A stretch of 63,364 nucleotides of DNA, filler included, from Collodictyon triciliatum (GCA_043381765.1; 10 parts of 10 records of this genome joined end to end with filler, not necessarily neighbours in it); one strand, 5' to 3'. Counted from the first letter of the whole stretch, positions 868 to 46,191 are shown. Notes: generated by a model from the letters alone, not told the origin. Numbers and translations: made by a program.

Positions 868-923
868 GAATACTGCTTAAGTTTTTTTTCCTTTATTCGA
901 TTCAAAGAATACTGCTTAAGTTT
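868..923 (-). mobile_element. Micro-retroposon copy 1 (CTTTGAATCGAATAAAGG-A8) with 17-bp target-site duplication
   Basis: gaatactgcttaagttt occurs at 868-884 and 907-923, flanking ttttttttcctttattcgattcaaa(g). Confidence 0.85.
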
Positions 924-2138
924 AATGGTGGAAAATATTTGTGCACTTCATTTTCAATTAAGAATACATTTTGGCCTCAGCAGGTGATAAAATAGCGTCG
1001 GAGATATGTCCGTGTTTATATCCTTCAAATGGTGTGATTAAACTTTCTTCTTTTTATCATAGTGATAGTATTATGTTGAAATAAGGATTTCTTAATTGAA
1101 ATATAAAGGCGTATATTTTAATCTTTTTATTTTTACCCTGAATTTTGAATCATCAGCCCACTTGACAAGGACAGGTGCCTCCATTAAAGAAATTTTATCA
1201 CGTTCTGCGTATTGATTAATAGAGTTGACCTAATAATTTCCCTTTTACGTTAAGAGATGCCTAGGTGCTCTTTCATTTGCCAATATTTTAGATAGTTTTT
1301 TCTCCTAAAAAGGGAGGACATCTATACTTCATGAGTAACGAATTGGCATAAAGGTCTTTGAGAAAAACATACTTCGTTCTTTTCCCATATGGACAACAGT
1401 CCATCCTGGTCTGCAATAAACAATCTAAAAAAAAAATTGATAATATTATTCGTATTATGTTTTGAGGCACCGTTAGGTGTAGACCATACGAAATGAAGAA
1501 GCGAAAAGACAAACCTCGAATTTACTGACTTTGTGCTGAAATCCATAAACTTTATTGGCTTTTCATGGCTTGTTATGTAAAATGATGATACATTTGGGTA
1601 TTCCGGGTGAGTAAGAAACAAAATTTGGATAACTGATCGTTCAGGAGGAAAACCTCTATAAAGAAGATAAAGTCGTGATGTTAGAACTCGGTCCCTTTTC
1701 TTTAATTACTATATTGATAGCATGTCTTTTCATAGAGCTCACTGATTTGTTGTTCGCAATAAAAAAAAAATGTTGATAAATCTCGTGAACTTTGGATTGA
1801 TTTGTGTATATTTGTGTATTTTCATTTAGGTTTTATCTATTCAGTGTTATCACGCGCAAAAAAAAAAATTAATAGATGTATATCATATGGTGATGTTACT
1901 TTAAAATATGACGACCAAATAAAATAAAATATGTTTAAGTGACCTTGCCGAAATTGGGACATGGAAAGGTTGGATCGTTGCCAAAACTCCGGTATGAGAC
2001 CACACACACGAGCTGCAAGTGTTTGGATTATTGTCAACAAAAATCACTTAATCAAATACGAACAGATGGGATTTTTTTATTATAAAAAAAAAAGAAGTAA
2101 AGGAATAAAAATAGATACATAATAAGAGGGGAAATGTG

Positions 2139-2294
2139 AATAATAATAATAATAATAATAATAATAATAATAATAATAATAATAATAATAATAATAGTAA
2201 TAGTAATAATAATAATAATAGTAATAGTAATAGTAATAGTAATAGTAATAGTAATAGTAATAGTAATAGTAATAGTAATAATAATAATAATAAT
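2139..2294. repeat. (AAT)n/(AATAGT)n microsatellite
   Basis: Directly visible. Confidence 0.95.
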
Positions 2295-42239: not shown

Positions 42240-42291
42240 CGTCAGTTCCGACAGCAAAGCGACATCGCACGAATCTTAGATCGGCTCAAAG

Positions 42292-45200
42292 ATGAATCAG
42301 CTTTCTGTCCAAACATCATTGCTGTGGTCATTGAGAGCGCAGACGANNNNNNNNNNNNNNNNNNNNNNNNNNNNNNNNNNNNNNNNNNNNNNNNNNNNNN
42401 NNNNNNNNNNNNNNNNNNNNNNNNNNNNNNNNNNNNNNNNNNNNNNNNNNNNNNNNNNNNNNNNNNNNNNNNNNNNNNNNNNNNNNNNNNNNNNNNNNNN
42501 NNNNNNNNNNNNNNNNNNNNNNNNNNNNNNNNNNNNNNNNNNNNNNNNNNNNNNNNNNNNNNNNNNNNNNNNNNNNNNNNNNNNNNNNNNNNNNNNNNNN
42601 NNNNNNNNNNNNNNNNNNNNNNNNNNNNNNNNNNNNNNNNNNNNNNNNNNNNNNNNNNNNNNNNNNNNNNNNNNNNNNNNNNNNNNNNNNNNNNNNNNNN
42701 NNNNNNNNNNNNNNNNNNNNNNNNNNNNNNNNNNNNNNNNNNNNNNNNNNNNNNNNNNNNNNNNNNNNNNNNNNNNNNNNNNNNNNNNNNNNNNNNNNNN
42801 NNNNNNNNNNNNNNNNNNNNNNNNNNNNNNNNNNNNNNNNNNNNNNNNNNNNNNNNNNNNNNNNNNNNNNNNNNNNNNNNNNNNNNNNNNNNNNNNNNNN
42901 NNNNNNNNNNNNNNNNNNNNNNNNNNNNNNNNNNNNNNNNNNNNNNNNNNNNNNCTTGAGACTTTTTGTTCCTCTAAGTGTTCGTGTGTTCACGTTTATC
43001 CCATAGTTTTCAAGTTAAGCAGAAGGTACTTATGTATTGATATTGACATGTCTCGCAGAGGCCTTTGCCGACTGTGGCAATCATCGGTCGCACAAACGTG
43101 GGAAAGTCAGCATTATTCAACCGTCTTGTTGGGAAGCGCAGAGCTATTGTCAATCCTGCAGCAGGTACAACGAGAGATAGAAATGAGGCTGTGGCAAGGG
43201 TAAGTTTGATTATATGCACACCTACAAAACTTAAGTATGCTTATGTAAAAATGGCCGAATGTCTGATGCTTTTTCCTTATCATTTACTTTCCTTAAAAGA
43301 AAAAATTCGTATAGAAATTCAATCACTTTTTTTGTGTATTTACTTGCCCTGTTTATGTTATGTCTTATTTTCGCACTTATTATTATTATTATTATTATTA
43401 TTATTATTATTATTATTATTATTATTATTATTATTATTATTATTATTATTATTATTATTATTATTATTATTATTGACACCTCAGATAAGTGATCTGGATT
43501 TCATCGCTATTGACACCCCGGGCTTCGAAGGTCCAGAATTCAGAAAAAACGTTAAGTAAGTACAGTATTGATGAATACTTGGATCCCGAAAGCAAACTTG
43601 GTGAACAAGTATTCCTTGTATTCTTTTCTGCTCTCTCTCTCTCTCTCTCTCTCTCTCTCTCTCTCTCTCTCTCTCTCTCGTTCTTTTATTCTTTTCTAAA
43701 ACAGGACGGACGAAGAAAACTTGCAGCCTTTGATGATGCGTCAGACAGCTCAGGCGCTAGAGGAGGCTACGCTAGCCTTCTTTGTTGTGGATGCAAAAGA
43801 GGGAGTAACTCAACTAGATGCAAATATCGCAAAATGGCTGAGGAAGCATGGATACAAGGAGGAGGATTCCAGCGATAATACTCTTAAGGCCCCGATTTAT
43901 ATCATCGCAAATAAGGCGGATAATGTAATCGCAGTAGAGGAGAAAATTGCCCAGATGAAAAAATTGGGTTTTGGCGACGCAATTCCTGTATCTGCCTTGA
44001 ACGGTTTCGGGATTTCATCCATTTTCGACATCATCGTGGCGAATCAAACCAAATTAGAAAAACATGTCCAAGAAACAGTGAATATTAGCTCATAAAAATT
44101 CATCCTATATATATCATAGTTCTTANNNNNNNNNNNNNNNNNNNNNNNNNNNNNNNNNNNNNNNNNNNNNNNNNNNNNNNNNNNNNNNNNNNNNNNNNNN
44201 NNNNNNNNNNNNNNNNNNNNNNNNNNNNNNNNNNNNNNNNNNNNNNNNNNNNNNNNNNNNNNNNNNNNNNNNNNNNNNNNNNNNNNNNNNNNNNNNNNNN
44301 NNNNNNNNNNNNNNNNNNNNNNNNNNNNNNNNNNNNNNNNNNNNNNNNNNNNNNNNNNNNNNNNNNNNNNNNNNNNNNNNNNNNNNNNNNNNNNNNNNNN
44401 NNNNNNNNNNNNNNNNNNNNNNNNNNNNNNNNNNNNNNNNNNNNNNNNNNNNNNNNNNNNNNNNNNNNNNNNNNNNNNNNNNNNNNNNNNNNNNNNNNNN
44501 NNNNNNNNNNNNNNNNNNNNNNNNNNNNNNNNNNNNNNNNNNNNNNNNNNNNNNNNNNNNNNNNNNNNNNNNNNNNNNNNNNNNNNNNNNNNNNNNNNNN
44601 NNNNNNNNNNNNNNNNNNNNNNNNNNNNNNNNNNNNNNNNNNNNNNNNNNNNNNNNNNNNNNNNNNNNNNNNNNNNNNNNNNNNNNNNNNNNNNNNNNNN
44701 NNNNNNNNNNNNNNNNNNNNNNNNNNNNNNNNNNNNNNNNNNNNNNNNNNNNNNNNNNNNNNNNNNNNNNNNNNNNNNNNNNNNNNNNNNNNNNNNNNNN
44801 NNNNNNNNNNNNNNNNNNNNNNNNNNNNNNNNNNNNNNNNNNNNNNNNNNNNNNNNNNNNNNNNNNNNNNNNNNNNNNNNNNNNNNNNNNNNNNNNNNNN
44901 NNNNNNNNNNNNNNNNNNNNNNNNNNNNNNNNNNNNNNNNNNNNNNNNNNNNNNNNNNNNNNNNNNNNNNNNNNNGAGAAATCGAATCTTTATCACGTAA
45001 TAATGCAGATTCATATTGGTGGACACGGCTGGAGTTCGGCGTAGAACTCAAATAACGCAGCAATTAGAGATAGATTCTGTAGCTTCGTCTCTAAAAGCCA
45101 TTCATACCAGCGATGCTGTTGTCCTGATGACAGACGTGATGAACGACCCGCTTTCCAAGCAAGATCTGGTTGCTTTCATAACACAATTCGCAACTATTCG

Positions 45201-46191
45201 AGTATTATATACTGCATGAGCATGGGTGATGTTTCCCCTTAAAAATGAATATCAAATTTTTCTTCTTTTTTTTCGATTTAGAGATTAGCCAACGAAGCAA
45301 TAGATAGAGGGAAGATTCTTGTCGTCGTGATTAATAAGTACGACTTGATGCCACCAAAAAAGGATGAAGAAATGAGAGAATGGATTGAAGAGCGCATTGA
45401 CAGTTCTTTGCCGCAAATCCCCAATGTGCCCCTATTTTACATATCTGCAAACTCTGGCACCAAGCACGAAGTCATTTTGGACGAGGTGGAAATATTATTA
45501 TTATTATTATTATTATTATTATTATTATTATTATTATTATTATTATTATTATTATTATTATTATTATTATTATTATTATTATTATTATTCCATTCAAAAT
45601 GATGAAATGAGTTTTATGGAATATTCACAAAACACTTTTTGTGAAAATCACAAATATATTTTATCACGAGCAACATCACTTTTCACTGGTACCAACTTAC
45701 TAAAAATAAAATAAAAAAGGTTGTCAATCTGTACGAAAAGTGGTCGACACGCATTTCTACTTCCAAACTCAATCGCTGGCTTCGAAGTGCCATCCGGGTT
45801 CGCTCGGTACCCCGAGACTATGGAAAACTTCGATATATGACCCAGGTGCGTTTTTATCAAAAAAATTTTTCCCCTTTATTCGATTCAAAGGTGCGTGTTT
45901 ATTGATAAGACCATATGACCCCTTCACTTCCAGTGTGATACTAGACGTTGACATTTCATAACACAACACGCCGCATAGATAACAGCGCAGCCGCCGACTT
46001 TCGTTATCTTTCAAAGCGGACGAACCGACCCACCAGAATCGTACATGAAGTATCTTACAAAAAGCCTGCGTGATAATCTGAATATGGACGGAATTCCCAT
46101 AAAGATTCAGGTGCGACACTCACAGAATCCTTACGCCGTAAACGAGCGTCGGAGCAATACAGGCAGACGACCAGAGCCGAAGGGAAGTTAG
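42292..46191 (+). CDS. der: Der/EngA double-GTPase, multi-exon, spans two assembly gaps; probably organelle-targeted; start tentative
   Basis: [36 protein letters not shown]; second G domain [20 protein letters not shown]-like tail [31 protein letters not shown]. Confidence 0.92.
45844..45902 (-). mobile_element. Micro-retroposon copy 5 with imperfect ~14-bp target-site duplication covering a 5' splice site
   Basis: aggtgcgtttttat (45844-45857) and aggtgcgtgtttat (45889-45902) flank caaaaaaatttttcccctttattcgattcaa. Confidence 0.72.

Follow-up and report, generated by a model that had tools for sequence, protein, structure and literature searches.

Ultra-short retroposed units in Collodictyon triciliatum and their probable origin from an L1-like LINE tail

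A stretch of 63,364 nucleotides from Collodictyon triciliatum (GCA_043381765.1; hereafter the window) carries a family of interspersed units, each about 26 bp long and most of them ending in a short poly(A) tail. The units are very probably retrocopies derived from the extreme 3′ end, 17-20 nt together with the poly(A) tail, of a long interspersed nuclear element (LINE) that is L1-like and encodes an endonuclease. We favor this reading because a 17-nt core recurs far above chance, because four of the five tailed copies are flanked by perfect target site duplications (TSDs) at TT|A sites, and because the core is identical to the 3′ end of a LINE found on a metagenome contig, L020. The 5′ ends of the units are clustered, within 4 nt of one another in all the tailed copies. 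The units lack a promoter; most likely they arise dead on arrival, as by-products of the LINE, and do not represent a small gene that propagates itself. The window is not a single locus: it consists of ten eukaryotic contig pieces, about 6.3 kb each, with spacers of the form N44-TTAATTAATTAA-N44 between them.

What determines the 5′ end of a LINE insertion is an old and poorly resolved question. Here almost all the insertions that can be seen for one LINE end inside a span of 4 nt, and the question becomes testable: either the RNA ends there or the polymerase stops there. The units also matter in their own right. At 26 bp they lie below the size that repeat annotation catches, and every one of them brings an AATAAA signal and a run of A's into the host sequence. 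If they are simple by-products of the LINE, they would be a curiosity of one LINE family.

Anatomy of the units

The core, CTTTGAATCGAATAAAG, has six exact matches in the 63 kb, starting at 891 (−), 6060 (−), 35652 (−), 36551 (−), 41064 (+) and 45874 (−), and one further match with two mismatches at 8000 (+). When the window is shuffled the mean number of matches is 0.05, and none of 100 shuffles reaches seven. Five copies (c1, c2, c3, c5, and c6) are tailed: the core is followed by one to three extra G's and then by A8, A9, A7, A8, and A5, respectively, so that a poly(A) tail of A5-A9 is present in five of five. The sixth exact core, at 36551, has no tail. A preliminary description of the window had listed the five tailed copies, each with the core and a short A tail, and had placed them on three contigs; its coordinates are right to within 1 nt, and the copies do lie on three pieces (1, 6, and 7). 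Its list was incomplete in two respects, as the exact core at 36551-36567 (−) and a doubtful copy at 8000-8016 (+) had been missed.

Perfect direct repeats abut four of the five tailed copies (c1, c2, c3, and c5) and are 16, 18, 17, and 18 bp long, lengths that include A's ambiguous between tail and repeat. Copy c1 spans 869-923 (−), with the TSD AAACTTAAGCAGTATT at 908-923 and 869-884 (16 bp), the core at 891-907, one G at 890, and A8 at 882-889; its 5′ end is the first base (C1) of the core and its 5′ flank reads ...CCATT|. Copy c2 spans 6034-6096 (−), with the TSD AATTGCCATACATAATCA at 6079-6096 and 6034-6051 (18 bp), the core at 6060-6076, one G at 6059, and A9 at 6050-6058. It has an additional CA at 6077-6078, upstream of the core, that continues the 3′ untranslated region (UTR) of the LINE (ACA, if an A shared with the TSD is counted), and its 5′ flank is ...AAATT|. 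Copy c3 spans 35629-35685 (−): the TSD AAATTTAAAGCGTTCGG is at 35669-35685 and 35629-35645 (17 bp), the core at 35652-35668, two G's at 35650-35651, and A7 at 35643-35649, after a 5′ flank of ...CCATT|. Copy c5 spans 41046-41106 (+), with the TSD ATCCTGATTCATGCTTTA at 41046-41063 and 41089-41106 (18 bp), the core at 41064-41080, a G at 41081, and A8 at 41082-41089; the 5′ flank is ...AGGTT|, and the final A of the TSD could equally be the LINE base that precedes the core.

The pre-insertion sites can be read as CCATT|AAAC (c1), AAATT|AATT (c2), CCATT|AAAT (c3), and AGGTT|ATCC (c5). In all four clean copies TT precedes the TSD and the TSD begins with A; the site of c6 is not clear. LINEs with an apurinic/apyrimidinic endonuclease (APE) are well known to leave such a signature when they insert by target-primed reverse transcription: a poly(A) tail, TSDs of variable sequence and roughly 7-20 bp, and TT|A sites, the nick consensus being TT|A(AAA). 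The preliminary description had recognized this signature, including the TT|A sites in four copies, and here it was borne out: poly(A) tails, TSDs of 16-18 bp, and TT|A sites are all present. Its claim of perfect TSDs stands for four of the five copies and fails for c6, where the repeat matches at 11 of 12 positions. The 5′ junctions of the tailed copies show microhomology of 0-1 nt and no untemplated bases. None of the four clean copies falls within a stop-free frame of at least 80 codons.

The target of c5 deserves a comment. Within 41089-41113 (+), right after its right TSD, come seven bases (TTGAATC) that equal bases 3-9 of the element; before insertion the target read GCTTTA-TTGAATC, which resembles the 5′ end of the element. 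The likeness could be chance, or it could point to an influence of the target on the 5′ junction through annealing with the cDNA end.

The remaining copies are less regular. Copy c6 spans 45846-45902 (−), with the core at 45874-45890, three G's at 45871-45873, and A5 at 45866-45870, followed by T7. The flanking repeat is imperfect, ATAAA[C/A]ACGCAC (45891-45902 and 45846-45857); when extended it matches at about 15 of 20 positions, and the T7 run separates it from the tail. GGGTCATAT is present on both sides, and the divergence of the repeat is out of step with the intact core. Copy c4 (36551-36567, −) consists of an exact 17-nt core (18 nt if the A before it is included) and lacks the extra G, the A tail, and the TSD. 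Its best flank alignment scores 6.5 vs. 16-18 in the clean copies. The tailed copy c3 lies 900 bp away and is oriented alike. Possible readings of c4 are a tailless, endonuclease-independent, or 3′-truncated capture, a remnant, or something else. The doubtful seventh copy (8000-8016, +) reads CTTTGAATCGAACAAAA, i.e., the core with two mismatches, and is embedded in low-complexity AT/(ATT)n sequence, where its flanking repeat is indistinguishable from the (ATT)n microsatellite.

The four clean copies also emerge when the core sequence is not used. A scan of both strands for a 12-mer, up to 6.4 kb of sequence, a run of at least five A's, and the same 12-mer again returned only c1, c2, c3, and c5, together with tandem repeats and one tandem duplication of about 170 bp; no such structure was found in 20 shuffles. 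The duplication accounts for the structure at 32132-32308, which is not a retrocopy. Comparison of the window with itself gave no other interspersed repeat. The units, at five to seven copies per 61 kb of non-N sequence, are the only one in the window.

The LINE that ends in the core

The preliminary description had predicted a parent LINE ending in the core sequence, and one such LINE was found. An exact-match scan of metagenome contigs with the 17-mer gave 116 loci, all of which were inspected. In 115 of them the match is without the G and A-tail context and looks like a chance match; one of these, L004, lies in bacterial coding sequence. The exception, L020, is a contig of 1157 bp whose minus strand carries a long frame with one frameshift, followed by ...GCTACA-CTTTGAATCGAATAAAGG-A10. 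The 18-mer with its A10 lies about 75 nt after the stop codon at the C-terminus of the second open reading frame (ORF2), and exactly at the tail the GC-rich LINE switches to AT-rich, unrelated flank. The frame matches the Pfam family zf-RVT (1.5e-07), the zinc knuckle found at the C-terminus of L1-type ORF2 proteins. On the evidence of this one contig, an L1-like LINE appears to end naturally in the 18-mer. The CA (or ACA) upstream of the core in c2 consists of LINE bases, which argues that the template of that copy was LINE RNA.

The rest of the protein can be pieced together from relatives. A HMMER search of 1.84 billion proteins with the L020 ORF found 14 relatives, seven of them at E ≤ 1e-10. 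The close relatives are all short metagenome fragments; four others are full-length (1226-1275 aa), at 25-38% identity. Exo_endo_phos and RVT_1 domains are present in all four and zf-RVT in three. One full-length relative, P0009, has all three domains, and its best match among solved structures is human LINE-1 ORF2p (3.4e-57, residues 3-871), with R2 at 9e-24. A member of the L020 family, P0017, which aligns with the L020 frame, is colinear with residues 772-1055 of P0009, and the L020 frame is likewise colinear with the P0009 region that follows the reverse transcriptase (RT) and includes the zinc knuckle. A word-index search for longer relatives of the L020 ORF found none.

The body of the LINE is absent from the window: blastn and tblastx with L020 match the tails only, and tblastn of the window with ten LINE proteins gave a best E of 0.077. 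In collections of genome contigs and viral contigs, the tail pattern scan found 0 and 0; LINE protein alignment there confirmed none of 42 and 25 pattern matches, respectively.

The fixed 5′ end

Every AAAG(1-4)A(≥4) site in the window was right-aligned to the LINE tail. The five tailed copies match it over 17, 17, 17, 18, and 20 nt; c2 is the longest at 20 nt, and its identity to L020 covers 30 nt. All other such sites match over 8 nt or less, with none at 9-16 nt and none above 20. The truncation points are thus not variable here: in five of five copies they lie 17-20 nt from the tail, inside a zone of 4 nt. The impression of a near-fixed 5′ end is therefore correct. The preliminary description had set this end at CTTTG, which holds as an approximation; c2 starts 2-3 nt further 5′, with ACA.

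On the cause of a stop at 17-20 nt we can offer proposals. The 158-nt 3′ UTR of L020 folds no better than its shuffles (z = −0.43), and the 26-mer has no predicted structure. ARAGORN found no tRNA-like element in L020 or the window; Rfam (E ≤ 10) gave no ribozyme in L020 and no family in either. With no predicted structure, tRNA-like fold, or known ribozyme at the boundary, an end of the template is weakly favored over a structural stop. One further feature of the UTR is visible by eye: at 150-185 (−) of L020, about 24 nt upstream of the core, there are four C-tracts (CCC or CCCC) with short spacers, so that the cDNA strand would carry a motif of the G-quadruplex type. The motif is too far upstream of the core to account for the stop.

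How the units may arise

From the anatomy we infer the following course of events. The LINE's own endonuclease and RT would insert the units by target-primed reverse transcription. The bottom strand would be nicked at TT|A, and the poly(A) tail would prime synthesis; a staggered nick of the top strand, 16-18 bp away, would then give rise to the TSD. To explain the 5′ end, we suggest a cut in the LINE mRNA about 18 nt, and sometimes 20-21 nt, before its poly(A) site, after which the ORF2 protein remains on the polyadenylated stub. The RT would run off the end of the stub, and only the stub would integrate, leaving a near-fixed 5′ end. The two layers taken jointly, i.e., retrocopies of the LINE tail made by run-off on a cleaved, polyadenylated 3′ stub of the LINE mRNA, form a tentative account to which we give rather less than even weight.

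Several points weigh against it. The stub is a hypothetical RNA, and analysis of the boundary in L020 found no cleavage motif or ribozyme. Run-off synthesis by L1 RT often adds non-templated bases, and none of the five copies has any at its 5′ junction. Five copies are all that were available. The LINE 3′ end is known from a single metagenome contig of 1157 bp with a frameshifted ORF, and the endonuclease and RT domains are seen not on L020 itself but in relatives at 28-30% identity. As the assembly is one of short contigs, young LINE fragments longer than a read would fall outside them, which makes the absence of long copies weak evidence. Finally, c4, with neither tail nor TSD, and c6, with its imperfect repeat, fit poorly with simple target-primed reverse transcription.

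A proposal nearly as likely as run-off on a stub is that the LINE RNA is intact and the RT itself halts 17-20 nt from the poly(A) site, the short cDNA then being joined to the target. Such a strong stop, or abortive reaction, could be due to a protein bound to the RNA or to a modified base, or it could occur where the AT-rich tail gives way to the C-rich upstream UTR. The same anatomy would result. In its favor, the template of c2 reached at least 2-3 nt beyond C1, and the upstream UTR is markedly C-rich in comparison with the AT-rich last 18 nt. The lack of significant predicted structure in the 158-nt UTR and in the 26-mer argues the other way. So does the microhomology of only 0-1 nt, since the joining of an internally stopped cDNA is usually assisted by microhomology. 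Moreover, a stop tied to the sequence whatever the length of the tail would call for a specific blocker, and no such blocker came to light.

The stub proposal can be put in a more specific form, which we regard as possible but somewhat doubtful: the units would be footprints of a discrete polyadenylated RNA stub of 18-21 nt, produced by a cut of the LINE mRNA at a fixed site and retained by the ORF2 protein. The stub could arise by small-RNA-guided slicing or through another host endonuclease, and it would integrate in place of the full element. If this is true, the genome records host cleavage of a retrotransposon to single-base resolution, and the units, roughly one in every 10 kb of unique sequence, are the shortest discrete retroposed units described. 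Mechanisms beyond those considered here are unlikely on the whole, though they keep a small share of the probability.

Template jumping appears improbable. Here the LINE RNA would carry the same ~18 nt at its 5′ end as well; the cDNA would re-anneal there and run off, and the body of the element would be skipped. This would give a precise 5′ end without intermediates; repeats common to the 5′ and 3′ UTRs do occur in some LINEs (e.g., TART of Drosophila), and the core at 36551 shows that the 17-mer can exist without a tail. The sequence downstream of that core, however, is AT-rich, with no ORF and no match to a LINE protein. In addition, c2 runs into 3′ UTR sequence (ACA), which is unexpected if the 5′ copy is the first base of the RNA.

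It is at least as improbable that the units are an independent, tiny retroposon, derived from a polyadenylated cellular RNA of about 18 nt that the L020 LINE acquired by a chimeric event or by chance insertion. There are five discrete copies vs. one linked to a LINE, and the LINE 3′ end was seen in one of 116 metagenome loci, which is what might prompt this idea. In L020, however, no poly(A) comes between core and UTR, there is no TSD, and the switch in composition comes at the tail. The LINE bases upstream of the core in c2 and the lack of a match to Rfam or to tRNA in the window or L020 also speak against it; 18 nt is too short for any known promoter.

Ordinary random 5′ truncation, seen through assembly bias, is very improbable. 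The lengths would be continuous, and only the shortest copies would survive within short-read contigs. The contigs are indeed short and end in microsatellites, and longer young repeats would break them. Copies of 21 to ~100 nt would nevertheless assemble, and copies of 9-16 nt would be detected; none was found. With lengths spread uniformly over 1-100 nt, we calculate a probability of about (4/100)^4 = 3e-6 that four further copies would fall in the same 4-nt window. Least probable of all is an adapter or an assembly chimera, a suggestion for which we found no supporting point: every clean copy carries a TSD of its own, sited at TT|A, the counts of G and A vary, an independent metagenome assembly contains a LINE that terminates in the same 18-mer with A10, and adapters do not duplicate their target.

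Surroundings of the units

The coding content of the window is eukaryotic, with ORFs for bZIP, Myb, TPR, and WD40 plus Ephrin_rec_like domains. Piece 7 has two additional N gaps inside it. At one end or the other, most pieces run into microsatellites or short tandem repeats, among them (AAAAAG)n, (CAA)n, (GATAAT)n, and units of 12-15 nt; examples are at 6268-6329, 6430-6460, 25706-25740, 31880-32028, 38551-38650, and 59524-59630. The assembly evidently breaks at simple repeats and not at the LINE, and such piece ends are, as expected, what short-read assembly would give. The start of piece 6 (32132-32400, −) holds the tandem duplication of ~170 bp.

Two frames stand out among the rest. A stop-free frame of 1556 codons at 20668-25338 (+) has no Pfam family, no homologue in an index of 5.8 billion proteins, and no convincing neighbour in the atlas. 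The ORF at 36977-38449 (+) encodes seven near-consensus WD40 repeats followed by Ephrin_rec_like repeats and is cut by the contig end. Its DNA is internally repetitive (72% identity), and it matches thousands of NLR-type WD40 proteins of bacteria, fungi, and protists, including a foraminifer, at identities of 55% or less.

Comparison with known systems

The literal sequence, in three 15-nt forms, and phrases for ultra-short retroposons were unmatched in the literature, a search that did not extend to Repbase, Dfam, or supplements, where the LINE may have been annotated before. The broader literature on transposable elements offered nothing comparable among the listings and abstracts consulted.

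The closest parallel is to 5′-truncated insertions of the L1 clade, as known from human LINE-1. The units share with them the poly(A), the TSDs of variable sequence, the TT|A sites, and the identity to a LINE 3′ end. The difference lies in the 5′ end: the truncation points of L1 are spread over kilobases, whereas here they fall within a 4-nt zone, and the window holds nothing longer.

Short interspersed nuclear elements (SINEs) that use LINE machinery, such as Alu and Platy-1, or that have LINE-derived 3′ tails, resemble the units in being non-autonomous and in having a discrete 5′ end, a LINE-type tail, and TSDs. The units differ in that they have no head, body, or RNA polymerase III (Pol III) promoter, and transcription of the copies is only putative. 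The TSD directly adjoins the unit of 17-20 nt, which leaves no room for a head of the tRNA, 7SL, or 5S type. The units are not SINEs: head and Pol III promoter are both lacking, and they match no small-RNA family. Platy-1, at ~100 bp, is reported to be the shortest known primate SINE (PMC4864456); by that measure the units, at 18-20 nt, are about five times shorter.

Lastly, U6/L1 chimeras and endonuclease-independent L1 insertions show that the products of an L1-type RT can be shaped by the end of the template or by a switch between templates. Copy c4, tailless and without a TSD, resembles the endonuclease-independent insertions as these are reported (PMC1920257). The five main copies differ: they are simple and non-chimeric and, as judged from their TSDs and target sites, endonuclease-dependent.

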